Source of the DNA: Dickeya dadantii NCPPB 898
GTDB lineage: Bacteria; Pseudomonadota; Gammaproteobacteria; Enterobacterales; Enterobacteriaceae
Assembly: GCF_000406145.1 (NCBI RefSeq)
Contig: NZ_CM001976.1
Coordinates: forward strand, 1,555,315-1,587,314
DNA: 32,000 bases
Direction: 5' to 3'
Position numbers and translations under genes: made by a program. This document shows, in pieces, positions 3,394 through 30,343 of the stretch. Each line of letters starts with the position of its first letter. Position 1 is the first letter of the stretch. The notes under the pieces are model-generated. The model was given only the letters and a program-made list of their open reading frames with translations. It made no database searches and had not been told where the DNA came from.

Positions 3394-4347
3394 GTGAACT
3401 TTCAACAACTGAAGATTATCCGTGAATCGGCGCGGTGCAACTATAACCTGACCGAAGTCGCCAATACCCTGTTCACTTCCCAGTCTGGCGTAAGCCGTCA
3501 CATCCGCGAACTGGAAGAAGAACTGGGTATTGAGATTTTTATCCGCCGCGGCAAACGCCTGCTGGGCATGACGGAACCGGGCAAAGAGCTGCTGGTCATG
3601 GCCGAACGTATTCTTAACGACGCCAATCATATCCGGCGGCTGGCGAACCTGTTCAGCGACAACGACGTCGGGCAACTGGTGATCGCCACCACTCACACGC
3701 AGGCGCGCTATAGCCTGCCGGGGGTGATCAAGGAATTTCGCGCGCTCTACCCGCAGGTGCAACTGGTGCTCAATCAGGGCACGCCGGACGAAATCGTGGC
3801 GATGCTGGAATCCGGCGAGGCGGACATTGGCATCGCCACCGAGCAACTGATGAACGTGAATTCGCTGGCGGCGTTTCCTTATTACCGCTGGCATCATGTC
3901 ATTCTGGTGCCGGAAGGGCACGCGCTGGCGCAAGAGCCGGCGGTCACGCTGGATAAACTCAGCGCGGTGCCGCTGATTACTTATCGGCAGGGCATCACCG
4001 GCCGTTCCCGTATCGATCGGGCGTTCGCCGCCGCCGGCCTGACGCCGCATATTTCCATCAGCGCGCAGGACTCGGATGTGATCAAAACCTACGTCGAACT
4101 GGGGCTGGGGGTGGGCATCGTCGCCGACATGTCGTTTGACGCCACACGTGATCCCGGTCTGGTGCGGCTGGATGCGCGTCACCTGTTTGAGGCCAGCACG
4201 GTCTGGCTGGGCCTCAAGCGCGGTCAGTTGCAGCGCAACTACACCTGGAAGTTTATTCAACTGTGCAACCCGGAGCTGACGCAGGATGACATCAAAGCAC
4301 GGGTGTTCGCCGAAGACAACGAAGCAGTGATCGATTATCAGATCTGA
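3394..4347 (+). CDS. cbl: LysR-family regulator Cbl (CysB-like; sulfonate-sulfur utilisation activator)
   Basis: 317 aa with a GTG start. The sequence MNFQQLKIIRESARCNYNLTEVANTLFTSQSGVSRHIRELEEELGIEIF...TVWLGLKRGQLQRNY...IDYQI closely resembles my recollection of E. coli Cbl across its whole length and is clearly closer to Cbl than to CysB. Confidence 0.9.
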   Translation: MNFQQLKIIRESARCNYNLTEVANTLFTSQSGVSRHIRELEEELGIEIFIRRGKRLLGMTEPGKELLVMAERILNDANHIRRLANLFSDNDVGQLVIATTHTQARYSLPGVIKEFRALYPQVQLVLNQGTPDEIVAMLESGEADIGIATEQLMNVNSLAAFPYYRWHHVILVPEGHALAQEPAVTLDKLSAVPLITYRQGITGRSRIDRAFAAAGLTPHISISAQDSDVIKTYVELGLGVGIVADMSFDATRDPGLVRLDARHLFEASTVWLGLKRGQLQRNYTWKFIQLCNPELTQDDIKARVFAEDNEAVIDYQI

Positions 4348-12619: not shown

Positions 12620-12652
12620 TCCATGCACAACCAACAACGAAAGGCACAACAG

Positions 12653-13222: not shown

Positions 13223-13252
13223 CCCACGCCATCCCCGAACAGGAGACTGACT

Positions 13253-13552
13253 ATGAAACTGCTTTGCCTTGATATCCCCCAGCCCGGCGCAACCCTGGCG
13301 CAGTACGAACCCTATATGCTGGATGAAGTCCGGCACGGCTGGGAATTGTACAAAAGCGGTCTGGTTCGCGACATTTACTTCCGACAGGATCGCCCGGGTG
13401 TTGCCATCATCGCCGAGTGCGAGTCTGTCGACGCCGCGAAGGCGGCGCTGGCCGAGTTTCCACTCGCTAAAGCCGGGTTAATCGACTGGGATATCATCCC
13501 ACTTGGCCCCTTCACGAACTGGGAAGCGCTGTTTGCCCGGGACAACGCCTGA
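13253..13552 (+). CDS. Small ferredoxin-fold protein, muconolactone delta-isomerase-like
   Basis: 99 aa. Its length and pattern (E..R.GWELYKSG..RDIY....PG.AIIAECES.D.A...L.EFPL...GLI...IIPLGPF) resemble the muconolactone isomerase domain. The call rests on pattern only. Confidence 0.45.
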   Translation: MKLLCLDIPQPGATLAQYEPYMLDEVRHGWELYKSGLVRDIYFRQDRPGVAIIAECESVDAAKAALAEFPLAKAGLIDWDIIPLGPFTNWEALFARDNA

Positions 13553-13649
13553 GCGTCGGACTTGCTATTCCTGTCTCGCCCCGCGCTGCCGGAGCGGCAA
13601 TCTGCTTCATGGTATCCGGCGCAAGATGCAAGATGAAAGAGGACCATTC

Positions 13650-14698: not shown

Positions 14699-14709
14699 GG
14701 AGTCCAGAC

Positions 14710-15399
14710 ATGAGCGGTACTATCAAACCCATTCTTTGCGTTGTGACCAGTCACCCGATTAGGGGCGACAGCGGTGAGCCCACCGGATTTGCGCTGGTCG
14801 AACTGACTCATCCGCTTGATGTGTTCGAAAAAGCCGGTATTCCGGTGGAGATCGCCTCAATCCGCGGCGGTCATCCGCCGATTGATTTTTTCGACCTTTC
14901 CGACCCGGTGAATGCCCGCTTCTGGCAAGACAAGGCTTTTCGTGATGCGCTGGCGCACTCACTGGTGCTCGGCGATCTCGACCCGTCCCGCTATTCAGCG
15001 GTCTTCTTTGCCGGCGGACATGGCACGATGTGGGATTTTGCCGACAGCTCGGCCGTACAAACCATCATTCGGGACATCTGGGAAGCCGGCGGTATCGTTT
15101 CCGCCGTCTGTCACGGCCCTGCCGCGCTGGTGAACGCCACGCTGTCAGACGGCACCTGGCTTGTCGCGGGCAAGAACGTCGCTGCCTTTACGGATGAAGA
15201 AGAAACTGCGGTCGGGTACAGCGCGGTGGTGCCTTATCTGCTGGCGAGCGCCCTTAAACAGCGCGGCGCGCGGCATCAGCCCGCGCCGGACTGGGCTGAA
15301 AACGTGGTGACGGATGGTCGGCTGGTAACCGGTCAAAATCCGGCATCGGCGCATGGCGTCGGCGTGGCGGTCGTCAACCAGCTCAAGGCAACCGCCTGA
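14710..15399 (+). CDS. DJ-1/PfpI-family (class I glutamine amidotransferase-like) protein, possible glyoxalase III/deglycase
   Basis: ATG at 14710 with GAGGAG 6 nt upstream. The nucleophile elbow is AVCHGPAAL. The FFAGGHG and VTGQNPAS motifs are typical of the Hsp31/DJ-1 superfamily. Confidence 0.8.
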   Translation: MSGTIKPILCVVTSHPIRGDSGEPTGFALVELTHPLDVFEKAGIPVEIASIRGGHPPIDFFDLSDPVNARFWQDKAFRDALAHSLVLGDLDPSRYSAVFFAGGHGTMWDFADSSAVQTIIRDIWEAGGIVSAVCHGPAALVNATLSDGTWLVAGKNVAAFTDEEETAVGYSAVVPYLLASALKQRGARHQPAPDWAENVVTDGRLVTGQNPASAHGVGVAVVNQLKATA

Positions 15400-15449
15400 C
15401 GGGGAATCTGTCGGGGTAGATGGCTGCCGGCAGGCCGCGATAATCGTAG

Positions 15450-16606
<1,157 letters not shown>

Positions 16607-16679
16607 CCGTAGCACGATGGTTGTTTTCGCGCCTTGAGGCCGGTTGGCTTGAAGAACAGATCGCATCGGGAGGGACACC

Positions 16680-17474
16680 ATGAAACGTATCGTATTGGCC
16701 GCCGCGCTCTCGCTCGTGCTGAGTGAACCCGCGTTGGCGAAAGAAAGAACAGGAGGCACCATCATGCCAGAAAGCGTATCGTCATTGTCGATCAACGACA
16801 TTCAATCCGTATCCCCGGCGCTTGCCCGCTATGCCCGCGAAGACGTGCTGGCGGACCTGTGGCAAAGGCCGCAGCTGTCGCCGCGCGACCGCAGTATCGT
16901 CACCGTCGCCACCCTGATTGCGCGCAACCAACCCGCCGAGCTCCGGCACTATGTTGGTGTGGCGCTCGATAACGGTGTGACCCCGGCTGAGATCTCCGAA
17001 ATCATCACCCACCTGGCTTTCTACGCCGGTTGGCCGAACGCGATGTCGGCGATCGCCGTCACTAAGGATGTCTTCGCGGCGCGAGGCGTCACCGCCGGGC
17101 AGCTTCCTCCGGCGTCACCGCCGTTGCTGCCGCTCAATGAAGAGGCGGAGCAACGGCGCGCTACCACCGTCGAGAACAGCATCGGCTCCGTTTCGCCGGG
17201 ATTGGTGAAATTCACGACCGATCCGCTGTTTCTCGACCTCTGGCAGCGGCCCGGGCTTGCCGCGCGGGATCGCAGTCTGGTGACCGTCACGTCGTTGATC
17301 GCATCGGGCCAGAGCGCACAGATCGCCTATCATCTCAACCGCGCCATGGATAACGGCCTGACCGCCGAAGCGGCGGGGGAAGTCGTGGCACATGCGGCGT
17401 TCTATGCCGGCTGGCCGAATGCGTTTTCCGCATCGGCGGTGGTCGCGGAGGTACTGCGCAGTCGTGCGAAATAG
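16680..17474 (+). CDS. Carboxymuconolactone decarboxylase (AhpD-like) family protein with two tandem CMD domains and an N-terminal signal peptide
   Basis: The signal peptide is MKRIVLAAALSLVLSEPALA|KE. Two internally repeated modules are visible: DLWQRPQLSPRDRSIVTVATLIA...ITHLAFYAGWPNAMSA and DLWQRPGLAARDRSLVTVTSLIA...VAHAAFYAGWPNAFSA. Confidence 0.8.
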   Translation: MKRIVLAAALSLVLSEPALAKERTGGTIMPESVSSLSINDIQSVSPALARYAREDVLADLWQRPQLSPRDRSIVTVATLIARNQPAELRHYVGVALDNGVTPAEISEIITHLAFYAGWPNAMSAIAVTKDVFAARGVTAGQLPPASPPLLPLNEEAEQRRATTVENSIGSVSPGLVKFTTDPLFLDLWQRPGLAARDRSLVTVTSLIASGQSAQIAYHLNRAMDNGLTAEAAGEVVAHAAFYAGWPNAFSASAVVAEVLRSRAK

Positions 17475-17575
17475 TCGTGCGAATATAGCGCATCGCAATC
17501 TCACCCGAGGACCACGGCGCGACCCACGCAGCCCGGACGGTGAGCGACGTTAAACCGAAGTAGGGGAATGCAACG

Positions 17576-18583
17576 ATGAAACTCGTGGCGATTGAAGAGC
17601 ATGTTCTGCCGGGCGACATCAAGCACGCCTGGACGACGATAACCGGTGCGGATGATGGGACTCTGGCCCTCAATCCCGCGGTCATCGATGAACGCCTCGC
17701 CGACCTTGGCGAGCAGCGGCTGGCATTGATGGACGAGACGGGCGTCGACGTACAGGTCTTGTCGCTAACCACGCCGGGCCTGAACAATCTCGGGGAGCAC
17801 GGCGTCGATCTGGCCCAACGCGCCAATGACCTGCTGGCGGGCGCTGTTCGCGCCAACCCGAGCCGTTTCCAGTTTCTTGCCGCGCTGCCTTTTGCCAATG
17901 CCGAAACGGCGGCGAGCGAATTACGCCGCGCTGTCACCGCACTGGGCGCCAGAGGCGCCATTTTGTACGGCCGGGTGGGGGATAAGCATCTGGACGATGA
18001 ACTGTTCGAACCGACGTTTGCCTGCGCGGCCGAACTCAACGTCCCTGTACTGATCCATCCGCAGATTCCGCAACCGTCGGTGCAACAGGCCTATTACAGC
18101 GGGTTTTCCCCGCCGGTCGACCTGGCTTTTGCTACCTTTGGCCTGGGCTGGCATTACGAAGCCGGCATCGAGTTTGTCCGGATGGTATTGGCCGGGGTGT
18201 TTGATCGCCATCCCAACCTTCAGGTCATTTTGGGGCACTGGGGGGAAGTGGTCATCTTCTATCTGGAGCGCCTGACCATGCTGGATCGGGTGTCTAAACT
18301 GCAGAAGCCATTGCTCGACTATGTTCGTAACAACCTCTATCTGACCGCCAGCGGTATGTTCAGTGCAAACTACCTGCAGCGCGCGATCGATGCCGTGGGG
18401 CCAGATCGCATTCTGTTTTCGACCGATTATCCCTACCAGTATCGGCCGGGAGGCGATGCGAGACGTTTCCTGAACGAACTGGCGCTGGAGCCGGCGAGCA
18501 AAGCCGGGCTTGCTCATCAAAACTGGGAGCGGCTTTGCGCCCGGCGGGGTGGTGGGAATGAACCAGCGGATCTGGTGCGTTAA
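17576..18583 (+). CDS. Amidohydrolase-2 family protein (ACMSD/LigW-type metal-dependent hydrolase or decarboxylase)
   Basis: 335 aa. It begins MKLVAIEEH (metal-binding E-E-H start) and contains ...VLIHP...GHWGE...LFSTDYPY (terminal Asp motif), which is typical of PF04909-type enzymes. Confidence 0.75.
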   Translation: MKLVAIEEHVLPGDIKHAWTTITGADDGTLALNPAVIDERLADLGEQRLALMDETGVDVQVLSLTTPGLNNLGEHGVDLAQRANDLLAGAVRANPSRFQFLAALPFANAETAASELRRAVTALGARGAILYGRVGDKHLDDELFEPTFACAAELNVPVLIHPQIPQPSVQQAYYSGFSPPVDLAFATFGLGWHYEAGIEFVRMVLAGVFDRHPNLQVILGHWGEVVIFYLERLTMLDRVSKLQKPLLDYVRNNLYLTASGMFSANYLQRAIDAVGPDRILFSTDYPYQYRPGGDARRFLNELALEPASKAGLAHQNWERLCARRGGGNEPADLVR

Positions 18584-18723
18584 TAATGACGTCCGAAACA
18601 ATATGGAATCCATCATGGCGGTCCCGATCCTGATGCCCGTACGCCGGGCCGCCCGTAATCCAATCGGTAATCCGCATAAGCCGATTGAGATGCGGGCCAG
18701 ACATACGGGTTAATCCGCGTGGA

Positions 18724-19800
18724 CTACGCTCTGGACTGCGCCGTAGCGGCCAGCGCTTGCCTCAGCGCCGCCCTATCCACCGCGAACGGCAGCCGGGCGG
18801 CGACGTCGGCTGGGATTGTCACCTGCGCGGCAATGTCGTCCCACTGGGATTCGGCGGTCAGGCCCAGCGTTTGCGGGGTTAACGGGCTGTCGTAGCGGCG
18901 CAATTGTGCCAGCAGCTCTTGATTGTCGAACCCGTGGCGCGCTTCCAGTTGCGCCTGCACGGCCAGACCCAACCCGACTTTTTCGCCGTGCAACCAGCGT
19001 TTGGATTCCGGTTGGTGGGTCAGACTGTTATGAATGGCGTGTGCAACGCCCAGTCGCGCGCGTTCATCCTTGACGCTGTTGGCGATTCCGGCCAGCGCAA
19101 TCACCGCGTCGATCACCCGGCGTAGCGCCGGCGTTACCCGTTGCTGCTGGTTATCCGCCAGCGCCTGCTCGCCGTGTGCATCAAACATGTCGACCGCCAG
19201 CCGGGCGATACGGGCTTTGATGTGCAACGACAGAGCATCGTCGCCGTGCCGCAGGTAAGGCAGAAATTCGTACCATTTGGCGAGCGCGTCGACAATACCG
19301 GCTTTCAGATAGCGTACCGGCGCGCGGGCAATCACCGTACTATCGACCAGCACCCACGCCGGCAGACGGTTCAGACTGAGCCGGCCCAGATGCGCGCCGT
19401 CACGGGTATAGAGCACGCTGATGGGCGACCAGGCGGCGCAGGTGGCGGCGACGGTCGGCACGGCGATCATCGGCAACGCGTCGGACTGGTCGGCCACTGC
19501 TTTGGCGGTATCCAACACTTTTCCGCCGCCGACGCCGAGAATCAGTTCGGCGCGTTCGATGTGCGCCTGTTCACGCAGCGCCGCGATGCTCTCTTCGGTG
19601 CAATAGCCTTCCAGAAACAGCGTCCGGTAATACAAACCATGCTGCCTGAGGCTGGCCTCCAGCGTGGCGGCGGTGTGCAGCCAGGCGGTCGGGCTGGTGA
19701 TGATCAACACCCGTTTCGCCAGCGGCTGGATATAATCGCCCACTTGGGCGAGCAGGCCGTCCTGATTAAGGTAGGTGTCCGGGACCTGTATGGCGATCAT
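18724..19800 (-). CDS. Iron-containing (group III) alcohol dehydrogenase family, YbdH/HcxA-like hydroxycarboxylate dehydrogenase
   Basis: 358 aa. GVGGGKVLDTAKAVA, AVPTVAATCAAWSPISVLY, DALAKWYE and AHAIHNSLT...LHGEKVGLG parallel recalled E. coli YbdH blocks. It is the last gene of the minus-strand ABC operon. Confidence 0.75.
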   Translation of the reverse strand: MIAIQVPDTYLNQDGLLAQVGDYIQPLAKRVLIITSPTAWLHTAATLEASLRQHGLYYRTLFLEGYCTEESIAALREQAHIERAELILGVGGGKVLDTAKAVADQSDALPMIAVPTVAATCAAWSPISVLYTRDGAHLGRLSLNRLPAWVLVDSTVIARAPVRYLKAGIVDALAKWYEFLPYLRHGDDALSLHIKARIARLAVDMFDAHGEQALADNQQQRVTPALRRVIDAVIALAGIANSVKDERARLGVAHAIHNSLTHQPESKRWLHGEKVGLGLAVQAQLEARHGFDNQELLAQLRRYDSPLTPQTLGLTAESQWDDIAAQVTIPADVAARLPFAVDRAALRQALAATAQSRA

Positions 19801-19833
19801 GCTCTGTTCTCCTGTCGATTTTTTCTGCGCAGC

Positions 19834-20700
19834 CTAGCGCTGCATACCCCATTTTCGGACGGTCAGGCGTTCCAGCGTGGCGAAAATCAGCCCTTCCACC
19901 AATAACCCGATCAGGATCACCGAAGCCAGACCGGCGAACACGCGGTCGGTATACAGCTCATTGCGGTTCTGAAAAATGTACCACCCCAGTCCGCCTTTGC
20001 CACTGGAAGCGCCAAACACCAGTTCAGCGGCGATCAAGGTACGCCAGGCGAAAGCCCAGCCGATTTTCAGACCAGAAATAATGGCGGGCAGCGCCGCCGG
20101 GATCAGAATGCGGGCGACATAGCGCCAGCCGGTCAGGCCGTAATTGCGCCCGGCCATGCGCAGGGTGTCGGAAACGCCGAGAAAGCCGCTGTAGGCGTTG
20201 AGCGCCATCGGCCACATTACCGAATGCACCAGCACGAAAACCAGGCTTTTTTCACCGAGTCCAAACCACAGCAGCGCCAGCGGCAGCAGGGCGATGGCGG
20301 GCAGCGGGTTAAGCATCGCGGTGAGCAGCGCCAGCAGGTCGCGCCCCAGTTGCACCGACACCGCCAGCGTACTGAGCAACAGCGCCAGCACGCTGCCGAT
20401 GACGTATCCTTTGAGCAGCGTACCGAGGGACACGGCTGTTTTCTGCGGCAGTTCGCCGCTCAGCCAATCCTGCTGGAATGCCTGTAGCGTCTGGAGAAAG
20501 CCGGGCAGCATCAGGTCGTTGTTCTGCCAGCGGGCGGCGGCTTCCCACAACACCAGCAGCAACAGCACCAGTATCAACCGCCGCAGCACGGTATGCTGCG
20601 CCAGCCGGGTCAGCCACGGTAGCGGCGCTTCCAGCGTCTCGGGCGGCAGCGGCGTCAGTTCACGCTGATACTCGGGTCTGACCGGGGGCAACGTATTCAT
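19834..20700 (-). CDS. ABC transporter permease, NitT/TauT (SsuC/TauC-like) family
   Basis: I place the start at the internal ATG (20700, GAGG 6 nt upstream): MNTLPPV.... The protein is a multi-pass hydrophobic protein with the EAA-like loop LRMAGRNYGLTGWRYVARILIPAALP. It overlaps the ATPase 3' end by 41 nt. Confidence 0.8.
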   Translation of the reverse strand: MNTLPPVRPEYQRELTPLPPETLEAPLPWLTRLAQHTVLRRLILVLLLLVLWEAAARWQNNDLMLPGFLQTLQAFQQDWLSGELPQKTAVSLGTLLKGYVIGSVLALLLSTLAVSVQLGRDLLALLTAMLNPLPAIALLPLALLWFGLGEKSLVFVLVHSVMWPMALNAYSGFLGVSDTLRMAGRNYGLTGWRYVARILIPAALPAIISGLKIGWAFAWRTLIAAELVFGASSGKGGLGWYIFQNRNELYTDRVFAGLASVILIGLLVEGLIFATLERLTVRKWGMQR

Positions 20701-21517
20701 GAGGAACCTCGTGTGAAGCCAACGCGCCGCGAGGGGCCGGCGTCGGCGGGAATAACAGATCGTGGATGCGCTGCGCGGTGTGCTGGAACGCCTCGCCGCC
20801 GGCATCGTTCAGCGAAAACTGATGGCTGTTGATTTCCGCCCGTACCCGGCCGGGATGGGGCGATAACAGCAGGATCCGGCTGCCGACCACCAGCGCTTCC
20901 TCAATCGAGTGGGTGACGAACAGCAACGTGAAGCGCACCTCTTCCCACAGTGTGAGCAACTCTTCCTGCATCTTGCGGCGGGTGAGGGCGTCCAGCGCGG
21001 CGAAGGGCTCGTCCATTAGCAGGATTTTCGGCTGCATCGCCAGCGCGCGGGCGATGGCCACCCGCTGTTTCATACCGCCGGACAGCGTGTGCGGGTAGGC
21101 ATCGGCGAATTTTGCCAGCCCGACCTTATCGAGAAAATGCAGCGCCCGTTCACGCGCTTCGGATAGTGGCAGCGTGCCGCTGGCGACCAGCGGGAACAGT
21201 GTGTTTTCCAGCACGGTTTTCCACGGCGGCAACTGGTCGAACTCCTGAAACACCATCATACGGTCCGGTCCGGGGCGGGTAACCGGTTGGTTTTCCAACC
21301 GGATACTGCCGCCGGCCGGCGACAGAAATCCGCCGATCGCTTTCAGCAGGCTGGACTTGCCGCAGCCGGACGGCCCCAGCAAAACGAAGCGTTCCGCCGG
21401 GAACACGTCAAAGCTGACGTCATGGGTCGCCTGTATCTGCGCGCGATGGGTGCGGTAACGCAGGTCAACGCCATTGACCTGCAACAGCGGATGCAATGGA
21501 TGAGCGGACATCGCCAT
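20660..21517 (-). CDS. ABC transporter ATP-binding protein, NitT/TauT (SsuB/TauB-like) family
   Basis: Walker A GPSGCGKSS, Q-loop, signature LSGGMKQRVAIARAL, Walker B ILLMDEPF and the H-loop VTHS are all present. Confidence 0.9.
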   Translation of the reverse strand: MAMSAHPLHPLLQVNGVDLRYRTHRAQIQATHDVSFDVFPAERFVLLGPSGCGKSSLLKAIGGFLSPAGGSIRLENQPVTRPGPDRMMVFQEFDQLPPWKTVLENTLFPLVASGTLPLSEARERALHFLDKVGLAKFADAYPHTLSGGMKQRVAIARALAMQPKILLMDEPFAALDALTRRKMQEELLTLWEEVRFTLLFVTHSIEEALVVGSRILLLSPHPGRVRAEINSHQFSLNDAGGEAFQHTAQRIHDLLFPPTPAPRGALASHEVPHEYVAPGQTRVSA

Positions 21518-21533
21518 CTCCTGTAGCCGGATA

Positions 21534-22679
21534 TTAACTGCCCGGCTGATCGTGGATTTCAGTGAAGAAGTAGTCTTTCCATGATGCCGCCTTGTTTTTC
21601 AGTACGCCGAGCTGGTGCAGTTTTTCGGCGTATACCGAGGTTCGCTGCGGCACGATGGTGAAGTTCACCTCCGGGTCTTCGACGATGCGTTTGACCAGCG
21701 GCAGCGGCAGGCGCGAATTTTCCACCCGGATATAGATTTCCGCGGCGGCGGCCTTGTTGGCGTTGATAATGTCGGACGCTTCCTTCAGCGCGTCGTAAAA
21801 GGCGCGGTAGGTTTTCGGGTTTTCATCGTGGAATTTCTGCGTGGTGTAGAGCACGTTGAAGGTGCCCGGACCGCCCAGCACGTCATAGGAACTCAGGATT
21901 TTGTGCACGTTCGGGTGCTCCAGCGCCTGATACTGGAACGGCGGGCTGGAGAAATGGGTGGTGATTTCCGAGCCGCCGGCGATCAGCGCGGCGTTGGCGT
22001 CCGGGTGCGGCAGGCTGACGGTGATGGTATCGAAGCGTTTGTAGTCGCTATTTCCAAACAGTTTGGCGGTTTCAATTTGCAGCGTGCGTGACTGGAAACC
22101 GACGCCGGCGGCCGGGGTGGCGATACGGTCGCGGTCGCTCAGGTCGCGCAGGGTTTTCACCGCCGGGTTATTGCTCAGCAGGTAATTCGGCATGGAGCCC
22201 AGCGAGGCGATGGCGCGCACATTTTGTTTGCCCAGCGTGCGGTCCCACAGGGTCAGCATCGGCGGTACGCCGGCGGAGGCGACATCCAGCGCGCCGGACA
22301 ACAATGCTTCGTTGATGACGGTGGCGCCGGACAGCGTGCGCCAGTCGACCTTGATCTCCAGCCCTTGTTGCTTGCCATGCTTTTCAATCAGCTGCTGGTC
22401 ACGCACCACGTCCAGAATCAGGTAGCCGATGCCAAACTGCTGGGCGATGCTGATGCTACCTTCCGCCTGTGCTGCCAGCGGCGAGGCGCCCAGAGCGAGT
22501 ACCAGCGCGAGCAGCCAGCCGCGTGTGACATGGCTGGAGGCGGTATTCTGCCCAGACGTGCTTTCAGTCCGGTTTATTTTGGCGAATTGGTTTTTTTTCA
22601 CGAACTGATTTGTTTTTACACATAGATCTGTTTTCACGAATCGATTGGTTTTCAAAAATTGCGTTTCCACTGGCGCCAT
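21534..22679 (-). CDS. ABC transporter periplasmic substrate-binding protein, NMT1/SsuA/TauA-like
   Basis: The signal-peptide-like segment is WLLALVLALGASPLAAQA|EG. The mature part is typical of NitT/TauT-family binding proteins. The start is uncertain: the only in-frame starts are ATG 22679, GTG 22637 and GTG 22601, all inside or upstream of an 18-bp repeat array. Confidence 0.75.
   Translation of the reverse strand: MAPVETQFLKTNRFVKTDLCVKTNQFVKKNQFAKINRTESTSGQNTASSHVTRGWLLALVLALGASPLAAQAEGSISIAQQFGIGYLILDVVRDQQLIEKHGKQQGLEIKVDWRTLSGATVINEALLSGALDVASAGVPPMLTLWDRTLGKQNVRAIASLGSMPNYLLSNNPAVKTLRDLSDRDRIATPAAGVGFQSRTLQIETAKLFGNSDYKRFDTITVSLPHPDANAALIAGGSEITTHFSSPPFQYQALEHPNVHKILSSYDVLGGPGTFNVLYTTQKFHDENPKTYRAFYDALKEASDIINANKAAAAEIYIRVENSRLPLPLVKRIVEDPEVNFTIVPQRTSVYAEKLHQLGVLKNKAASWKDYFFTEIHDQPGS
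22571..22660. repeat. Degenerate tandem repeat, 18-bp unit x5, at the 5' end of the binding-protein gene
   Basis: Plus-strand units are GGTTTATTTTGGCGAATT / GGTTTTTTTTCACGAACT / GATTTGTTTTTACACATA / GATCTGTTTTCACGAATC / GATTGGTTTTCAAAAATT. On the coding strand they encode FLKTNR FVKTDL CVKTNQ FVKKNQ FAKINR. Confidence 0.8.
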
Positions 22680-22956
22680 CGGTATAGTCTCGCAGTCGGT
22701 TAATTATTTAATTAATAAAAATCGGCAATCATGTTTCATTTCGAAAGGGATAACTTTCGCATGCTATTTTTATAATCCCTGACGGCAAAGCTTATTTGGG
22801 AATAAGTTATTTTAATTCTATTTATAGTTATTCCTGATAAGCAGAGTGGATATTCTGTTAAGCAATATTGTTGCTATCGTTTCCCGTATTATTCACTTAC
22901 CCCGATTTCCGCGAGGATTATAGTAAACCCCTTTCTGATTTACGGGGACCCGGAGT

Positions 22957-23979
22957 ATGCCTGTCTTTGCTCATGATTATTTACGTCGCTATCTGCGCGA
23001 ACGCCTGACCGACGCGGAGGTGAATGCGGAGGTTGCCGGGATAGTGGCGGATAATCTGGTGGAATCCAGCTTAAAAGGGCACGATTCCCACGGCGTCAGC
23101 ATGCTGCCGCGTTACATCGCCGCCATTCGCGAAGGCGGGTTGTCACCGCACGCGCGGGCGGAACAGACCCTGGACGCCGGGCCGATGCTGGCGTTTTCCG
23201 GGCAGCATGGCTTTGGTCAGGTGGTGGCCCGGCAGGCGATCGCGCAGGGCATTGAGCGCGCGAAACAGCAGGGCGTGGCGGTGATCAGCCTGTCGGATGC
23301 ACACCATCTCGGGCGCATCGGCGCCTGGGCGGAGCAGGCGGCCGAGGCCGGGCTGGTGTCGCTGCATTTCGCCAACGTCTATACCCGCCCGATCGTCATG
23401 CCCTGGCAGGGGCAGCAACCGCGTTTTGGCACCAATCCGTTCTGCGCCGGCGTTCCGGTGGCGGGCGGCTCGCCGGTGATTCTCGATTTCGCTACCAGCG
23501 TGATTGCCGGCAACAAGGCGCGCATTGCCTGGAACGAAGGGCGACAGCTGCCGCCGGGGCAGATTGTCGACAGTCAGGGCCAGCCTGCGGTGGAGCCGCG
23601 CTGGCTAATGGAAGAGCCATTCGGCGCGTTGCTGGCGTTCGGTCAACATAAAGGTTCCGGGCTGGCGCTGGTGTGCTCGCTGCTTGGCGCGGCGCTGACC
23701 GGCGGGTCGACCGAGCGCACCGCCACCGGTCAGGGTAAGCAGATCATCAACAGCATGCTGTCGATACTGATCGACCCGGAGCGGCTGGGCGGCGCGGCCA
23801 GCTATCAGCAGGAAATTCCCGCCTTGCTGGACTGGGTGCGCCAGTCGCGCCCCGATGGCGGATTGCTGCTGCCCGGCGACCCGGAACAGCAGGCGTATCA
23901 GCAACGGCTGGCAAACGGTATTTTCGTCGACGACACCAGCTGGCGGCAATTAACCGAACTGGAGCGGCAAGTGGCCTGA
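22957..23979 (+). CDS. Ldh_2-family (malate/L-lactate/sulfolactate dehydrogenase type) oxidoreductase, YbiC/HcxB-like
   Basis: 340 aa. GHDSHGVSMLPRY, AHHLGRIGAWAEQAAEAGLVSLHF, RFGTNPFCAGVP, DFATSVIAGNK and FGQHKGSGLAL parallel recalled E. coli YbiC blocks. Confidence 0.8.
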   Translation: MPVFAHDYLRRYLRERLTDAEVNAEVAGIVADNLVESSLKGHDSHGVSMLPRYIAAIREGGLSPHARAEQTLDAGPMLAFSGQHGFGQVVARQAIAQGIERAKQQGVAVISLSDAHHLGRIGAWAEQAAEAGLVSLHFANVYTRPIVMPWQGQQPRFGTNPFCAGVPVAGGSPVILDFATSVIAGNKARIAWNEGRQLPPGQIVDSQGQPAVEPRWLMEEPFGALLAFGQHKGSGLALVCSLLGAALTGGSTERTATGQGKQIINSMLSILIDPERLGGAASYQQEIPALLDWVRQSRPDGGLLLPGDPEQQAYQQRLANGIFVDDTSWRQLTELERQVA

Positions 23980-24050
23980 ACCGGTTGTCAGTCAGTACGC
24001 CACGGTTATTTTTATTACCCTGATTAACTGCGCGACGTCTTATTTCATGG

Positions 24051-24072
24051 CGTGTTCTGCAACACGTTTTTA
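24051..24072 (+). terminator. Weak rho-independent terminator candidate after the Ldh_2 gene
   Basis: A 6-bp stem, CGTGTT (24051-24056) paired with AACACG (24061-24066), is followed by TTTTTATT. The stem is short, so this is tentative. Confidence 0.35.
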
Positions 24073-24158
24073 TTACTTCGTCCGTTGATTAGCGTGGGCG
24101 AAATAAGATGAAAAAAACGACGGCTAAAACACATTGATTATTCCCCGAGGAGAAAAAT

Positions 24159-25172
24159 ATGCATCTCGCCCGTTTTCCCCGCTTATCGCTGGGCCATTTC
24201 CCTACGCCGCTGGAACCGCTGCCGCGTTTATCGGCTTATCTCGGCGGCCCGACGATTTATATCAAACGTGACGACGCCACCGGGCTGGCGACCGGCGGAA
24301 ATAAAACCCGCAAGCTCGAATTTCTGCTGGCGGAAGCCTTGCAGCAGGAGGCCGATGTCATCATCACCCAGGGCGCTACCCAGTCCAACCATGTACGGCA
24401 AACCATTGCCGCCGCGGCGAAACTGGGGTTAAAAACCCAGGTACTGCTGGAAAAACGGGTTGAAGATTACGGCGTGGATTACCAGCGTTCCGGCAACGTG
24501 TTGCTGGACAAACTGCTGGGCGGCGACATTGTTGACCACCTGCCGGCCGGCACCGATATGCAGCAGGCGATGGAGGTGTTGGCCGCCACGTTACGCGAGC
24601 AGGGACACCGCCCCTATGTGATCCCCGGCGGTGGCTCCAGCCCGACCGGCGCGCTGGGATACGTCGCCTGTGCTGAAGAGTTGCTGTATCAGTCCAGCCA
24701 GCAGCGGCTGCGCATCGACCATATCGTACACGCCACCGGTAGCACCGGCACTCAGGCCGGGCTGGTTGCCGGGTTGACCGCCAGCAACAGCGGTATTCCG
24801 GTGCTGGGCATCAGCGTGCGTGCGCCGAAAGCGAAGCAGGAAGAAAACGTCTGGCAACTGGCGCAGCGCACCTGGCAGAAGCTGGGGCTGGTGGGCGAGG
24901 TGCCGCGCGAGGCTATCCAGGTTAACAGTGACTATGTCGGGCAAGGATACGGCATTCCCACCGCCGGGACGCTGGAGGCCCTGACGCTGGCGGCGCAGCT
25001 GGAAGGCATTTTGCTGGACCCGGTCTATTCCGGCAAGGCGCTGGCCGGGTTGATCGATCTGGCGCGCAAGGGGCGGTTCGGCAAGGATGAAAACGTGCTG
25101 TTTATTCATACCGGCGGGTCGGCCGGGCTGTTTGGTTACCGCCAACTGTTCGAACAGCAGGAAGGCTGGTGA
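24159..25172 (+). CDS. PLP-dependent fold-type II lyase of the D-cysteine desulfhydrase / ACC deaminase / cysteate sulfo-lyase family
   Basis: 337 aa. [12 protein letters not shown]...IYIKRDD...[12 protein letters not shown] (PLP lysine), [32 protein letters not shown] and LFIHTGG parallel recalled E. coli DcyD. Substrate cannot be assigned from sequence alone. Confidence 0.8.
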
Positions 25173-25900
25173 TGCCGTCGCCGGCGCGTTTTCTGGTCGG
25201 GGTGCTGGGCGGCATGGGGCCGCTCGCCACCGTCGACCTGTTACAGAAGATCATCGCCGCCACGCCCGCCGAGCGCGACCAGCAACATGTACCGGTCGCG
25301 GTGTGGAATGTGCCGCAGATTCCGGATCGTCAGCGGGCGCTGGCCGGGATTGGCGCATCGCCGTTGCCGGCGTTGCTGGATGGCGTTGAGCGCCTCAACC
25401 GGCTGGATATCAGTCATCTGATTATTCCCTGCAATACCGCGCATCACTGGTTTGATGAACTGCAAGCGGCCAGCCGCGCGCCGGTGCTGCATATCGCCGA
25501 TGTCACGCTGGCACAGGCGCAGGCCGCGCTGGCTGACACGTCATCGCCCCGGGTAGGGCTAATCGCCACCCATGGCACGCTGGCGGCGGGCTGGTATCAA
25601 CGGCGGCTGGCGGCGTTGGATATCGAGACGGTGCTGCCCGATGAACAGGAGATGGATAACCTGTTTGTGCCGGGCTGTTACGCCGTCAAGCGCGGCGACG
25701 TGGCGGCGGGCGGCGCGCTGTTCGGGCAACTGGCGGAACGGCTGGCTGCACGCGGCGCCACCCACCTGATTCTGGCCTGTACTGAAGTGGCTCCCGGACT
25801 GGCGGCAACGCAGTCACGCTGGCTGGCGCGCAGTATCGACAGTACTGAGGCGCTGGCCCGGCACTGCGTCGCGCTGTGGCGGGAACAGGCGGGCGGGTAA
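25169..25900 (+). CDS. Aspartate/glutamate/hydantoin racemase-family amino-acid racemase (YgeA / aspartate-racemase-like)
   Basis: 243 aa. [11 protein letters not shown] and the two catalytic-Cys motifs [10 protein letters not shown] and LILACTEV are present. The start (GTG 25169 or ATG 25172) overlaps the lyase stop codon at 25170-25172. Confidence 0.8.
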
Positions 25901-25905
25901 CGAAA

Positions 25906-25969
25906 AACCGCCCGACGGCTGGGACCGAACGGGCGGTTGGGGGGAGAACATGTGCTGCGCCGACGTGCT
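25906..25969. terminator. Two GC-rich hairpins between convergent racemase and dcuB (bidirectional terminator region)
   Basis: Hairpin 1 pairs AACCGCCCG (25906-25914) with CGGGCGGTT (25930-25938). On the minus strand it is followed by a T-run, giving ...GGCGGTTTTT. Hairpin 2 pairs GCTGCGCCG (25944-25952) with CGGCGCAGC (25961-25969). Confidence 0.55.
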
Positions 25970-25987: not shown

Positions 25988-27328
25988 TCAGTAATACCCG
26001 TACATGGCGGCGAACACCCAGCCGAATACGCAGGAGGTGCTGACGCCAATCAGGCCCGGCAGGATGAAGCTGTGGTTAATCACAAACCGGCCGATGTGGG
26101 TGGTACCGGAGCGGTCGAACTGGATAGCGGCCAGATCGCTCGGGTAGGTCGGCAGAATGTAGTAACCATAACAGGCCGGTGCCGACGCCACGATGTACGC
26201 CGGGTCAACGCCGATCGCCAGCGCGACCGGCACAATGGCGGCCAGCGCGGCGGCCTGCGAGTTCACGAACTTGGACACCAGCAGCAGGATCAGCGCATAC
26301 GCCCACGGGTACTCTTTCACCAGCGTGCCCAGCGTTTCCTTAATTTCCGTCAGGTGCGCGCCGAACATGGTTTCCGCCATCCAGGCGATGCCGTACACCG
26401 CAACAATCGCGATCATCCCGGAACGGAATACCTCGTTTTTCGAAATCGACCCCGGATTGGTTTTGGTGGCGATGATGATGATAGCGCCGGACAGCAGCAT
26501 GAACATCTGAATCACCAGCACCATCGACAGCGGTTTGCCGCCGAAGGACGGACGCAGGCTTTCCACCGCGCCCAGCAACGCTACCGCGGCGATGGTGGCG
26601 AGGAAGATCCACATGGCGACCCAGTTGCTGCGCGGCAGTTTGCGGTCCAGCAGGGTGGCGGTGTCGCCGTAGACGTACTCGCGGTTTTCCGGCACGGAAA
26701 TGAATTTCTGGAATTCCGGATCCTTGTCCAGATCTTTACCCCTGAACCAACTGAAAATCCCGATGGCCAGAATACCCAACAGGGTAGAGGGAATCGTGAT
26801 TGCAAGTAAGTCCAGGAATTCAAGATGTTTGCCGTGGAAGGTGAATTTGCCGAGCATGGCGACCAGCGACACCACCGCCACCGAAACCGGGCTGGCGATA
26901 ATCCCCATCTGCGCGCCGATCGAACTGGCGGCCATCGGCCGTTCCGGGCGAATGTTATTCTTGATGGCGACGTCGTAAATAATCGGCAGGATGGTGTACA
27001 CCACGTGGCCGGTGCCACACAGAATGGTCAGTATACAGGTCACGAACGGCGCAATGATCGACACATATTTCGGGTTGCGTCGCAGCATTTTTTCCGCCAC
27101 CTGCAGCATCACATCCAGCCCGCCGGAGGCTTGCAGCGTGGCGGAGGCGGCCACCACGGAGATGATGACCAGCATCACGTCCACCGGCGGTTTCCCAGGC
27201 TCTAGTTTAAAAATGAAAACCAGAATGACGAGTCCGATACCCCCTAATAATCCGAGCGCGATACCACCTTTTCGCGCACCGTAAAACAGGCAGATCAGGA
27301 CTATGATAAGTTGAATGATAAAGTCCAT
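25988..27328 (-). CDS. dcuB: Anaerobic C4-dicarboxylate transporter (Dcu family)
   Basis: 446 aa. [40 protein letters not shown]...[30 protein letters not shown]...[68 protein letters not shown] is nearly colinear with recalled E. coli DcuB. Confidence 0.92.
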
Positions 27329-28042
27329 AGATTCCCCATTGCTCAGAATGACGAGTTAATTAATTGAGATTGGATTACTGTCGTCACAGGTACTATAGAG
27401 ATTATTCCGTCTGTTTTTTCTTGATCTAAATCTACTATTCTCTCTGTTTCTTTCCTGGATGGTGAATTAATGGGGCGTGTTGCAGGAATAAAAATCTCCT
27501 GATTTTTTTTAGTTTATTAATTATAAGATTAATTTTATAATTCTTAATAAAGATGAATTGTCGTCAATTTGTTTCATAGGTTTTATTGCTTCAACGTTTT
27601 GTTTTGATGAGTGTTTTGTTTTTGTTGTGATGGTGTTTTTTTATAGTTGCGTTTTTGCCCCAATAGGGTGAGCGGCGCGAAAGTTAACGCTGTTTTAAAA
27701 ATAAATCAATAATATAACTTTAAAGTAAGTCATTGATTATAATCATCTTATATAAATTTAATTCTATCTTTCTGCGCTGTTTTTTTAATGTCAATCGCGT
27801 GTATCGATGGCCGGGAATAAATGATAATAATTCCCGGTCGTTCTGACTGCGTTATTTTATAAATCTACCGGCGACATCACATTATTTCATTCATGGGTAA
27901 AATGAATATGATGGGGAACGGTTAATAGTTTGTCTGGTTATTAAAATAAAACCGTCATGGTGTATTTTTGTCTATTAGACCTCGCTGCGCATCATTACAG
28001 GTTTAACCTAAAGCCAGGTGAAACGGCATTGCCGACGAACAC

Positions 28043-28672
28043 TCATTCTGCACGTCGGGCGCCAACCCATTCCGCCATTGCCGGGCAGCCGTTTTCACGT
28101 TGTAACCCATCAATCACCCCCTGACGATCTTCCGGCGTTCTGTTCTGGCTGACTTTCCATTTACCGTCGAGTGCCGCGATCGGGATTTCCAACCCGACGA
28201 TACCGTTAAGCTGGGCGGCGATAAACGCGGCGGGCGCATCGTCCACCTGCCACGGCCGGGGGCGCTCGTGCTCATGGGCGTGGGTCAAGGCGTCGATCTG
28301 CCGGCGCAGCCAGTCTGCGTCGTCAGTCACCATTGGCGCGCCGCGCGCCTGCACCATCACATAGTTCCAGGTCGGCACCGCTTTGCCGTGTGCCTGTTTC
28401 GATGGATACCAGTCTGGCGAGATGTAGCTGTCCGGCCCCTGAAACACCACCAGCGCCTCGCCGACGGTCCTTAATTCAGCCACCTGCGGATTATTACGGG
28501 CCAGATGAGCGCGTAACGTACCGAATGCGCCGTCATCGGTTAACAGAAAAGGGACGAGGTTGGCGGACAGACCGCCGGGGCCGGCGGTAATCAGCATGGC
28601 GAGCGGATGGGCACGCATCAACGCGTGCAGAATCGGCTGGCGTTCTTCCCGAAATACGTGCGGACAATGCAT
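28043..28672 (-). CDS. paiB: FMN-binding split-barrel protein, PaiB family (putative negative transcriptional regulator)
   Basis: I place the start at the ATG at 28672 (AAGGA 9 nt upstream). MHCPHVFREERQPILHALMRAHPLAMLIT...VPTWNY..V...G...KVSQNR follows the PaiB-family pattern. Confidence 0.75.
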   Translation of the reverse strand: MHCPHVFREERQPILHALMRAHPLAMLITAGPGGLSANLVPFLLTDDGAFGTLRAHLARNNPQVAELRTVGEALVVFQGPDSYISPDWYPSKQAHGKAVPTWNYVMVQARGAPMVTDDADWLRRQIDALTHAHEHERPRPWQVDDAPAAFIAAQLNGIVGLEIPIAALDGKWKVSQNRTPEDRQGVIDGLQRENGCPAMAEWVGARRAE

Positions 28673-28766
28673 AGCGATCATTCCTTCTGTGGCTGGATAA
28701 CATCATTCATCCCGACCATTGTGCGGTAAAGCGGTCTGCAATTAAGAGCCGCTTTGGCGTAATATC

Positions 28767-28820: not shown

Positions 28821-28861
28821 GGCGATATCCCATGCGATCACAGATAAAAAGGAATGCGCTG

Positions 28862-30343
28862 ATGCCACGATCACGTTGCCTGACCGAATTGCCTGCGCTC
28901 GGCGCGCTGGACCGGGCCGCCGGCTCGGTGGGGCGCCAGCTGGCTCTGGCGCTGCGGCAAGCCATTCAGCGCGGAGAATTAAAAGCGGGCGAACGTATTC
29001 CTTCAACCCGAACGCTGGCGCGATCGCTGGGGCTGGCGCGCTCGACGGTGGCGGATGTGTTCGACCAACTGGCGGCGGAGGGGTATCTGGACGCGCGCAG
29101 CGGCTCCGGCACCTGGGTCTCTTCCGCGTTTGGCCTCATGGCGCCGGTCAGCATGACGGCATCGTCGGCAGCGCCTCCGGCTCCGGTGTCGTTGCCGTCC
29201 TCGGCGCAGCGTTATGCCGCCATCGCCCGCGCGTTGTCGCCGTTACCGGCAGTACCGTTTTCAGTGGCAGTGCCGGAAGGGGAGGCGGCGCCGGACGATC
29301 GCTGGCGATGCCTCGGCAACCGGGTACGCGCCGGTCAGGCGGCGGCGCTGGCCGGATACAGCGACCCCCGAGGGCTGTTTTCGCTGCGTGCGGCGATTGC
29401 CACGTATCTGCGCCAGTCGCGGGCGGCGATCGCCGAGCCGGACAACATTATCCTGACCGAAGGCACCCAGCAGGGGCTGTATCTGGCGGCGCGGGTACTG
29501 CTGTCGCCCGGCGACGGCGCCTGGGCGGAAGATCCGGCTTATGCCGGGTTGATCGCGGTGCTGACCGAATGCGGCGTGCAGACGCGGCGCATACCGGTGG
29601 ATACGCAGGGCATGGACGTGGAACTGGCGACACGCCGCTATGCCGATGCCCGGGCGGCGTTTGTTACGCCGTCTCATCAGTATCCGCTCGGAATGCCGCT
29701 CAGCATGGGGCGCCGCCTGGCGCTGCTGGAGTGGGCGAGGCAGCACGATAGCTGGATTGTGGAAGATGATTACGACAGCGAGCTGCGGTACGTCGGGCAT
29801 CCGTTTCCCGCCATGCAAGGGCTGGACCCCGGGCGGGTGGTGTATCTGGGCACGTTCAGCAAGGTGATGGCGCCGTCGTTGCGGCTCGGTTATATGGTGG
29901 TGCCCGCGGCGCTGACGGAGGCGTTCGCCGGCGCCCGCGCACTGATGGGGCGCGCTTCGCCGCTGGCTGACCAGCACGTGCTGACGGCGTATATGCAAGA
30001 GGGGTATTTCGAGGCGCATATTCGTCGCATTCGCACCGTTTATGCCGAACGGCGTCACGTGTTGATTGAGGCATTGCAGCACGAAACGCCCTGGTTGCAG
30101 CTTGAACCCGGCGATCAAGGCATGCATCTGGTGGCGTGGCTGCCCGATGGCGTAGAGGATGTGGCGGTCGAGCGTGCGGCCCACGCCGCCGGGCTGGCGT
30201 TGCGCGCGCTCTCGCCGATGTATGCCGGCCCGACGCGTCGCTCGGGCCTGATGCTGGGGTTCGGCGGGTTTCCGCCCGAGGCGCTGCGACAGGCTGTTCG
30301 ACAGTTGCGCACGGTACTGACGCCGTTTATGACATTGTTGTGA
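28862..30343 (+). CDS. MocR/GabR/PdxR-type regulator (GntR wHTH fused to a fold-type I aminotransferase-like domain)
   Basis: The wHTH is GERIPSTRTLARSLGLARSTVADVFDQLAAEGYL. The aminotransferase-like domain has the PLP-lysine context YLGTFSKVMAPSLRLGY. The track start is 28832, but I prefer ATG 28862 because AGGA lies 8 nt upstream. Confidence 0.85.
   Translation: MPRSRCLTELPALGALDRAAGSVGRQLALALRQAIQRGELKAGERIPSTRTLARSLGLARSTVADVFDQLAAEGYLDARSGSGTWVSSAFGLMAPVSMTASSAAPPAPVSLPSSAQRYAAIARALSPLPAVPFSVAVPEGEAAPDDRWRCLGNRVRAGQAAALAGYSDPRGLFSLRAAIATYLRQSRAAIAEPDNIILTEGTQQGLYLAARVLLSPGDGAWAEDPAYAGLIAVLTECGVQTRRIPVDTQGMDVELATRRYADARAAFVTPSHQYPLGMPLSMGRRLALLEWARQHDSWIVEDDYDSELRYVGHPFPAMQGLDPGRVVYLGTFSKVMAPSLRLGYMVVPAALTEAFAGARALMGRASPLADQHVLTAYMQEGYFEAHIRRIRTVYAERRHVLIEALQHETPWLQLEPGDQGMHLVAWLPDGVEDVAVERAAHAAGLALRALSPMYAGPTRRSGLMLGFGGFPPEALRQAVRQLRTVLTPFMTLL

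Follow-up and report, generated by a model that had tools for sequence, protein, structure and literature searches.

The 32,000-nt stretch of the Dickeya dadantii NCPPB 898 genome analyzed here (hereafter the window) carries, at positions 18724-25900, a locus of seven genes, two of which, cuyA and cuyB, encode a lyase and a racemase that are members of the CuyA and CuyB families, with their catalysis predicted from sequence, while the other five encode an ATP-binding cassette (ABC) importer of the NMT1_2 type and two dehydrogenases, one of the Ldh_2 family and one iron-type alcohol dehydrogenase (Fe-ADH). We propose that the locus is a two-module unit for the scavenging of sulfonate sulfur, in which module 2 (the importer and the dehydrogenases) imports a hydroxy-carboxy-sulfonate, most likely 3-sulfolactate, that feeds CuyB and CuyA (module 1), a proposal to which we give slightly less than an even chance. 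The wider suggestion that the Ldh_2 gene and the NMT1_2 importer, with or without the glycerol dehydrogenase (GldA)-like enzyme, form an unrecognized system of the Enterobacterales for the assimilation of sulfolactate or other C3 hydroxy-sulfonates is more tentative still. The cuyAB core is already known, both from its characterization in 2024 and from curated NCBIfam models, and the logic of the pathway has been described in marine Alphaproteobacteria; what is new is the enterobacterial form with an NMT1_2-type ABC importer and soluble YbiC- and GldA-type dehydrogenases, its modular association with a TauABC-like importer and its linkage to cbl, all of them so far undescribed. An earlier reading of the same DNA, made by a model without database searches (the original prediction), had called the whole locus undescribed, which holds for the module of five genes but not for the CuyA/CuyB half. 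Its seven open reading frames (ORFs), with the families named for them, were recovered by Pfam and NCBIfam profile scores, and its sulfonate interpretation was strengthened, since the CuyA and CuyB models were passed and comparative genomics ties the importer and the dehydrogenases to cuyAB and cbl.

The lyase obtained 549.5 bits on the CuyA model NF052482 (cut-off 450), with a match over positions 1-331 of the 332 in the profile, and remained below the cut-offs of all three DcyD models (317, 302 and 300 bits against 429, 610 and 469) and of the 1-aminocyclopropane-1-carboxylate (ACC) deaminase model (260 against 392), so that, among the families with which the original prediction had suggested comparing 24159-25172, only the CuyA cut-off was passed. 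The active sites of StDcyD, BwCuyA and SpCuyA share a Lys that binds pyridoxal 5'-phosphate (PLP), an Asn, a Ser-Asn pair, a Tyr and a Thr, and the Tyr is the base for the alpha-proton that sets their D-specificity (PMC11193023); the CuyA residues to which these roles were given in that study are conserved in the window protein as N48-K49, S76-N77, Y290 and T318. The racemase, in turn, obtained 260.6 bits on the CuyB model NF052483 (cut-off 190) and 154.6 bits on Asp_Glu_race PF01177, and it has the Cys pair of CuyB, with C88 in PCNTAH and C204 in ACTE. The CuyB-CuyA pair was characterized in Bilophila wadsworthia (Liu et al., J Biol Chem 2024; PMC11193023), in which CuyA favors D-cysteate approximately 50-fold over L-cysteate, and CuyB makes D-cysteate from L-cysteate and is inactive on L-cysteine and L-serine (PMC11193023). 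The racemase is needed because CuyA prefers D-cysteate. As in Bilophila, the window genes form an adjacent pair that scores above the curated cut-offs, with the same catalytic residues and the same predicted chemistry; unlike in Bilophila, where sulfite is a respiratory electron acceptor and the neighborhood includes an SDF-family transporter and RidA, the window has no respiratory context, its linkage to cbl suggests assimilation, and the neighbors are a TauT-family ABC importer and two dehydrogenases.

One genome per species was scanned throughout the Enterobacterales, resulting in 80 cuyA loci, and the counts given here refer to the 78 that exceed 15 kb in length. In 77 of these, cuyB adjoins cuyA. 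A TauABC-like importer (tauA2C2B2) is present in the cuy operon at 59 loci, and its binding protein obtains 174-183 bits on the taurine binding-protein model, under the cut-off; the NMT1_2-type importer is present at 25 loci, nine loci have both, and three loci, in Lonsdalea, retain a relic binding-protein gene alone. The dehydrogenases are distributed with the NMT1_2 importer: Ldh_2 is found in 23 and the Fe-ADH in 22 of the 25 loci that have this importer, against 2 of the 50 loci in which the TauABC-like importer is the only one, and therefore its ligand appears to need a 2-hydroxyacid-type dehydrogenase before it can enter CuyB and CuyA. The gene set of the window recurs in about 25 species of at least 10 genera and in two gene orders, so that the arrangement is not due to chance. 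In the typical layout of the Enterobacteriaceae, cuyA-cuyB-tauA2C2B2 stands between rnr and rlmB, whereas the full form observed in Pectobacterium, Brenneria and Yersinia consists of Fe-ADH, permease, ATPase and binding-protein genes, divergent from Ldh_2-tauA2C2B2-cuyA-cuyB, with the order rearranged in Yersinia. Full loci such as that of Pectobacterium versatile have the three tauA2C2B2 genes between Ldh_2 and cuyA, and in the window-type layout these were lost; fragments of TauA2 remain at this position in Pectobacterium betavasculorum, and no remnant of the TauABC-like importer was detectable in the 179-bp Ldh_2-cuyA spacer of the window. Ldh_2 is the constant divergent partner of the NMT1_2 importer also where cuyAB lies elsewhere, since in Superficieibacter and Phytobacter the divergent Ldh_2-importer pair stands alone, away from cuyAB in the genome, and members of these genera carry cuyAB-tauA2C2B2 between rnr and rlmB. 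The Fe-ADH is less constant, being absent in Phytobacter and in the loci L010 and L026, and a pseudogene in L027. The locus is absent from all 5426 complete E. coli genomes, in which only weak dcyD matches were obtained, and our literature searches found no paper on the enterobacterial locus.

The binding protein of the NMT1_2 importer is above the cut-off of the Pfam NMT1_2 model (24.7 bits) and below those of the sulfonate models SsuA_fam TIGR01728 (59.2 against 163.5) and TauA TIGR01729 (23.3 against 304), with an identity of 15-20% to TauA and SsuA. The ATPase has a taurine ABC ATPase as its top NCBIfam match (210.5 against a cut-off of 357), and the permease has SaoP, SsuC and TauC, all of them under the cut-off. 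A sequence search of the PDB with the binding protein gave no real match. An AlphaFold2 (AF2) model of this protein, built from a deep alignment, reached a predicted local distance difference test (pLDDT) score of 97.4, as compared with 48.6 from a shallow alignment, and its best Foldseek matches were E. coli TauA (6SSY) and SsuA of Xanthomonas and E. coli (3KSX, 3E4R and 2X26), with template modeling (TM) scores of 0.71-0.75, closely followed by ThiY, Thi5, NrtA and PqqT, which bind thiamine precursors, nitrate and pyrroloquinoline quinone. At the level of the predicted structure, the fold search confirms the TauA/SsuA class of the protein and does not name its ligand. Orthologues with 77-96% identity are present in many Enterobacterales. 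Cronobacter has one of 82% identity in an operon (L083, 10001-13592) with the order binding protein, TauD-like dioxygenase, ATPase and permease, without Ldh_2; the dioxygenase obtained 241.5 bits, under the taurine dioxygenase cut-off of 313, and the operon is an uncharacterized second tau-like operon. The motif GGAATAAGTTA is common to its upstream region and to the importer-side promoter of the window. More distant relatives of the binding protein stand beside an LLM monooxygenase of the NtaA/DmoA type (56% identity) and beside an Xsc-like thiamine pyrophosphate enzyme with a GMC oxidoreductase (46%). Because of these desulfonating-enzyme neighbors, and since TauA and SsuA are the closest structures, we regard the importer as a system of the sulfonate class. 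The mature binding protein begins at about residue 71, and its N-terminal extension includes, in frame, about 4-5 tandem copies of an 18-nt repeat (22571-22654), which encode the peptide units NRFVKT, DLCVKT, NQFVKK and NQFAKI. This region is 12 codons shorter in the Dickeya relatives, and in other genera the protein begins with an ordinary signal peptide some 30 residues long; the repeat may be an expansion tolerated in the n-region of the signal peptide, or it may have a regulatory role. In Sodalis sp. RH13, the locus is bordered by an extra orphan gene for an NMT1-family binding protein (L022, 3655-4656), which is convergent with the gene of the Fe-ADH.

The Ldh_2 enzyme matches PF02615 over its full length and passes the YbiC-type model NF007504 (419 bits against a cut-off of 336), and its PDB matches are E. 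coli YbiC (2G8Y, 283 bits), DpkA (157) and ComC (2X06, 143). Given that the Ldh_2 family includes ComC, an (R)-sulfolactate dehydrogenase, we propose that the enzyme is a sulfolactate/sulfopyruvate oxidoreductase. For the Fe-ADH, the top NCBIfam match was the glycerol dehydrogenase subfamily NF006941 (245.4 against a cut-off of 336), with lower scores on the HcxA model NF007880 (190.7 against 429) and SarD (43), and the best PDB matches were likewise glycerol dehydrogenases (165 bits); the metal-site motifs of D171, H254 and H271 align with glycerol dehydrogenase 8K1G, and the NAD-binding GGGKVLDTAK at residue 91 is conserved as well. We propose for it an accessory role, as a second dehydrogenase acting on the imported hydroxy-sulfonate. 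DhpA, considered as a precedent for an Fe-ADH that acts on 2,3-dihydroxypropane-1-sulfonate (DHPS), had to be discarded, as it belongs to the 3-hydroxyisobutyrate dehydrogenase family. The same two protein families are represented in E. coli K-12 by HcxA (YbdH) and HcxB (YbiC), whose genes are unlinked and have no adjoining ABC importer, as the original prediction had it, and lie 204 kb apart. Its label of HcxB-like for the Ldh_2 enzyme stands as far as the YbiC-type model is concerned, although the identity to E. coli HcxB is only 41%, and its label of HcxA-like for the Fe-ADH has to be given up, because with 36% identity, a score below the HcxA cut-off and higher scores on glycerol dehydrogenase models the enzyme is not an HcxA orthologue. 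Literature searches yielded no paper on the substrates of HcxA and HcxB.

We infer both the imported ligand, sulfolactate, and the substrates of the two dehydrogenases, and we envisage the following route. The NMT1_2 importer would take up the hydroxy-carboxy-sulfonate, most plausibly 3-sulfolactate, which Ldh_2 would oxidize to 3-sulfopyruvate, while the glycerol dehydrogenase-like enzyme possibly handles the other sulfolactate enantiomer or a related substrate. A housekeeping aminotransferase of the aspartate type, encoded elsewhere, would convert sulfopyruvate into L-cysteate, CuyB would racemize it to D-cysteate, and CuyA would release pyruvate, ammonium and sulfite from D-cysteate by PLP-dependent beta-elimination. 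The sulfite would stay in the cell, where assimilatory sulfite reductase would reduce it to supply the synthesis of cysteine. The succession from sulfolactate through sulfopyruvate and L-cysteate to CuyB and CuyA has already been published as the CuyA pathway of roseobacters (PMC11382572), and the sequence of steps put forward in the original prediction, which ends in pyruvate and sulfite, agrees with it. The original prediction had also regarded the pathway as incomplete for want of an aminotransferase or a sulfite exporter. Indeed no aminotransferase is assigned at the locus, but the gene is unassigned in the published pathway as well (PMC11382572), and there is precedent for a "general aspartate aminotransferase" that interconverts cysteate and sulfopyruvate (PMC12713407). 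The gene at 28832-30343, examined as a source of this activity, was ruled out because it encodes a regulator of the MocR type, in which a GntR domain is joined to an aminotransferase fold.

When sulfate is limiting, a LysR-type activator that binds at about -63, with Cbl as the candidate, would probably induce both transcription units. On the Ldh_2 side of the divergent promoter region, a dyad AGCAA-N5-TTGCT (22861-22875), centered at about -63 from the inferred start, is conserved in a cross-genus alignment and is followed by a weak -35 element (TTACCC, 22897-22902) and a -10 element (TATAGT, 22919-22924); on the importer side, the conserved motif is CTTATTTGGGAATAAGTTA (22791-22809). A position weight matrix (PWM) built from 40 Enterobacteriaceae cuyA promoters, with z-scores calculated against shuffles, picked a 75-nt block at 22850-22924 in the window (z = 7.8), and gave z = 5.6-7.1 at the Ldh_2 promoters of Dickeya, Pectobacterium, Samsonia and Brenneria and z = 2.9 and 5.4 where the Ldh_2-importer pair stands alone, in Superficieibacter and Phytobacter. 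This resemblance of the Ldh_2 promoter to the cuyA promoter argues for co-regulation of Ldh_2 and cuyAB. The order cbl-gltP-locus, in which cbl is within two genes, is found in Pectobacterium, Samsonia, Brenneria and Lonsdalea, and cbl directly follows cuyB in seven loci of the Sodalis/Acerihabitans group. In the window, cbl is 14.4 kb from the locus, in line with the figure of about 15 kb given in the original prediction, with gltP and an inserted block in between. Neither a local regulator nor a sulfite exporter was found in any locus examined, and this absence, together with the linkage to cbl, points to sulfur assimilation and not to carbon catabolism, so that we no longer call the locus catabolic as the original prediction had done.

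Several observations weigh against the sulfolactate proposal. The species counts are phylogenetically non-independent. The Ldh_2 enzyme is far under the archaeal sulfolactate dehydrogenase model NF040650 (186.5 against 500) and, being of the YbiC type, is nearer to HcxB and about equally near to DpkA and ComC; the Fe-ADH is below both the HcxA and the GldA cut-offs, and we know of no glycerol dehydrogenase-like enzyme in C3-sulfonate metabolism. The cuyA promoter matrix gave a weak match to the E. coli tauA promoter (z = 2.4) and none to that of ssuE (z = 0.6), and therefore the case for control by Cbl rests on gene linkage, and no Cbl site is claimed. Some loci with the importer are short of a dehydrogenase, namely L033 without Ldh_2, L010 without the Fe-ADH, and L026 without both and with a split cuyB, and therefore the substrate of the importer could be cysteate itself. 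This is the main rival explanation, although we consider it rather unlikely: the NMT1_2 importer would take up L- or D-cysteate, perhaps in an enantiomer or affinity range outside that of the TauABC-like importer, CuyAB would perform all of the sulfonate chemistry, and the dehydrogenases would serve side reactions or salvage, e.g., of sulfopyruvate from unspecific transamination, or would be unrelated passengers. It agrees with the dehydrogenase-poor loci, with the 50 loci in which cuyAB and a TauABC-like importer are sufficient, with the low score of Ldh_2 on the sulfolactate dehydrogenase model, and with the many genomes, that of the window included, which lost the TauABC-like importer and retain cuyAB. 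However, the two importers coexist within a single locus in nine species, an argument for separate ligands, the dehydrogenases follow the NMT1_2 importer and not cuyAB, and the Ldh_2-importer pair persists away from cuyAB. Moreover L026, the sole locus without both dehydrogenases, looks decayed given its disrupted cuyB.

A lesser alternative, which we judge improbable, is that the ligand is another C3 or C2 hydroxy-sulfonate such as DHPS, with the Fe-ADH acting first on the vicinal diol, host aldehyde dehydrogenases in between, and Ldh_2 acting later on sulfolactate. DHPS is a sulfonated analogue of glycerol, the nearest relatives of the Fe-ADH are glycerol dehydrogenases, its gene is predicted to be co-transcribed with those of the importer, and an ABC system of the SsuA/TauT type is the candidate DHPS importer of Desulfovibrio sp. 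DF1 (PMC6278857). Nevertheless, glycerol dehydrogenases oxidize C2, a reaction that would not give sulfolactate, neither a sulfolactaldehyde dehydrogenase nor HpsN was found in any locus examined, and the Fe-ADH is the less constant partner of the importer. A route for D-/L-cysteine or other beta-substituted amino acids, which the original prediction had held to be equally possible, now seems very improbable to us; the lyase would be a D-cysteine desulfhydrase, the racemase would feed it with the L-isomer, and the remaining genes would handle non-sulfonated hydroxy or amino acids. Characterized CuyA enzymes do retain partial activity on D-cysteine (PMC11193023), the lyase shares 48% identity with E. 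coli DcyD, and the near-identical full-length PDB match of the window CuyA, 7YSK (632.7 bits), bears the depositors' name of "D-cysteine desulfhydrase", another point against our proposal. Yet the lyase passes the CuyA model and none of the DcyD models, BwCuyB is inactive on L-cysteine and L-serine, the relatives of the importer adjoin desulfonating enzymes, and to racemize and destroy L-cysteine would be counter-productive in a sulfur-starvation context linked to cbl. The homologous PLP-dependent lyase of E. coli, of fold type II, is also encoded within an ABC importer operon for sulfur nutrition, tcyJ-dcyD-tcyLN, but this cystine-transporter context is absent at the window locus: the E. coli importer is of the polar amino acid and not of the TauT type, and it is accompanied by no racemase and no dehydrogenases. 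Given its near-identity to the window CuyA, the structure 7YSK/7YSL probably represents a D-cysteate sulfo-lyase, in which case the deposited name needs correcting; our literature searches turned up no paper describing it.

The proposed sulfolactate route shares its intermediates with the CuyA pathway of Roseovarius nubinhibens and Ruegeria pomeroyi, and in both cases the aminotransferase is encoded apart. The roseobacters, however, use a membrane-bound SlcD, a TTT-type importer (SlcHFG), the sulfite exporter CuyZ and the regulator CuyR for carbon catabolism (PMC11382572), where the window has a soluble Ldh_2 and a GldA-like enzyme, an ABC-type importer, no exporter and no local regulator. With the SlcC/ComC and SuyAB system of Chromohalobacter salexigens and Paracoccus it has in common two NAD(P)-dependent dehydrogenases associated with C3-sulfonate desulfonation, one of which, ComC, is of the Ldh_2 family. 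Nevertheless, the window Ldh_2 is below the cut-off of the ComC-type model, SlcC belongs to the D-2-hydroxyacid dehydrogenase family and is not an Fe-ADH, and the Fe(II)-dependent SuyAB desulfonates (R)-sulfolactate directly, whereas the window has no suyAB. The tauABCD and ssuEADCB operons of E. coli resemble the locus in combining a TauT/NitT importer with a desulfonating enzyme, in lacking a local regulator and a sulfite exporter, and in their link to Cbl, but they rely on oxygenases, and the route proposed for the window, composed of dehydrogenation, transamination and PLP-dependent beta-elimination, would be independent of oxygen.

The turnover of cysteine and of sulfoquinovose, the plant sulfolipid component, yields sulfolactate, DHPS and cysteate as major products, and to our knowledge little apart from the oxygen-dependent Tau and Ssu systems has been described for their use by Enterobacterales. 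The locus would give the soft-rot genera Dickeya, Pectobacterium and Brenneria, as well as Yersinia, Rahnella and Sodalis, an oxygen-independent source of sulfur from C3 sulfonates, and the simpler cuyAB form would do likewise for many gut Enterobacteriaceae. It also offers candidate genes for an importer and for soluble sulfolactate dehydrogenases, both of them gaps in the CuyA pathway as published. If the proposal is correct, this would be the first ABC-type sulfolactate importer, and two new types of sulfolactate dehydrogenase, one of the YbiC/HcxB type and one of the glycerol dehydrogenase type, would funnel into CuyB and CuyA under Cbl; plant-associated and gut enterobacteria would then reach sulfoquinovose-derived sulfur without oxygen, and there would be a hint of the class of physiological substrate for HcxA and HcxB, which are orphan enzymes of E. 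coli.

The features of the locus, together with cbl, are listed in the table. The genes are spaced in a way that fits two divergent transcription units, with an AT-rich spacer of 277 bp between them. In the minus-strand unit, a gap of 16 nt separates the binding-protein and ATPase genes, the ATPase and permease genes overlap by 41 nt, and 33 nt lie between the permease and Fe-ADH genes; the permease gene, by comparison with a 288-aa Dickeya orthologue, probably starts at the ATG at 20700. In the plus-strand unit, cuyA follows Ldh_2 after 179 bp, and cuyA and cuyB overlap by 4 nt, with cuyB predicted to be translationally coupled to cuyA. The hairpin at 25906-25932 is the probable terminator of the cuy unit.

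Table. Predicted features of the sulfonate locus of the window and the linked cbl gene
Feature	Position	Strand	Evidence
Fe-ADH, glycerol dehydrogenase-like, last gene of the importer operon	18724..19800	-	Pfam Fe-ADH 105.5 bits
ABC importer permease	19834..20700 (ORF open to 20805)	-	BPD_transp_1
ABC importer ATPase	20660..21517	-	ABC_tran 118 bits
Periplasmic substrate-binding protein, NMT1_2 / distant SsuA family	21534..22679	-	NMT1_2 44.7 bits
Divergent promoter/operator region	22680..22956	.	Cross-genus alignment, promoter PWM
Ldh_2 dehydrogenase, YbiC/HcxB-type, NAD(P)-dependent 2-hydroxyacid class	22957..23979	+	Ldh_2 339.5 bits
Spacer between Ldh_2 and cuyA, with a hairpin and then a T-run at 24049-24068	23980..24158	.	
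cuyA, predicted PLP-dependent D-cysteate sulfo-lyase (PALP)	24159..25172	+	NF052482 549.5 bits
cuyB, predicted PLP-independent Asp/Glu-type cysteate racemase	25169..25900	+	NF052483 260.6 bits
G+C-rich hairpin and T-runs between the convergent cuyB and dcu genes	25906..25932	.	
cbl, CysB-family activator of sulfonate-sulfur utilization	3394..4347	+	NF009324 551.6 bits (cut-off 491)

The closest relatives of the locus are in two Dickeya genomes (L081 and L082), which have the same seven genes with approximately 90% DNA identity. The block at about 9200-18700 of the window is absent from both, in which two glutathione S-transferase genes directly follow the Fe-ADH gene, and most of the distance between the locus and cbl is due to this insertion. 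The block encodes an EstP-like GDSL autotransporter esterase, a LysR regulator, a WrbA-like protein, a DJ-1/PfpI protein, an aldo-keto reductase, a CMD protein, an Amidohydro_2 protein and a zinc-type alcohol dehydrogenase that is split into two overlapping ORFs (13503-14189 and 14078-14698, with ADH_N and ADH_zinc_N), probably by a frameshift or as a pseudogene. The gltP gene (4785-6101), of the SDF family, stands between cbl and the locus throughout the Pectobacteriaceae (L001-L023). An SDF-family transporter in the cuyA neighborhood of Bilophila was proposed as a cysteate carrier (PMC11193023), and by analogy GltP could be an entry route for L-cysteate; as a true GltP orthologue, it was not assigned to the locus as the carrier of the unit.

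On the other side, convergent to cuyB, dcu (25988-27328) encodes a C4-dicarboxylate transporter of the DcuA/DcuB type that is 87-99% conserved beside the locus in Dickeya, Pectobacterium, Brenneria, Lonsdalea and Samsonia, and absent there in other families. It was not taken as the cysteate carrier of the unit either, because as a conserved neighbor restricted to the Pectobacteriaceae it looks like part of the core genome. Between dcu and the following gene there is a 700-bp AT-rich spacer (27329-28042; GC about 0.40, against about 0.60 around it), with no Rfam or tRNA match. It is followed by a divergent pair composed of a PaiB-like FMN_bind_2 gene (28043-28681) and the above-mentioned MocR/PdxR-type regulator gene, which combines a GntR helix-turn-helix with an aminotransferase fold, and in the Dickeya relatives about a quarter of the FMN_bind_2 gene is left.

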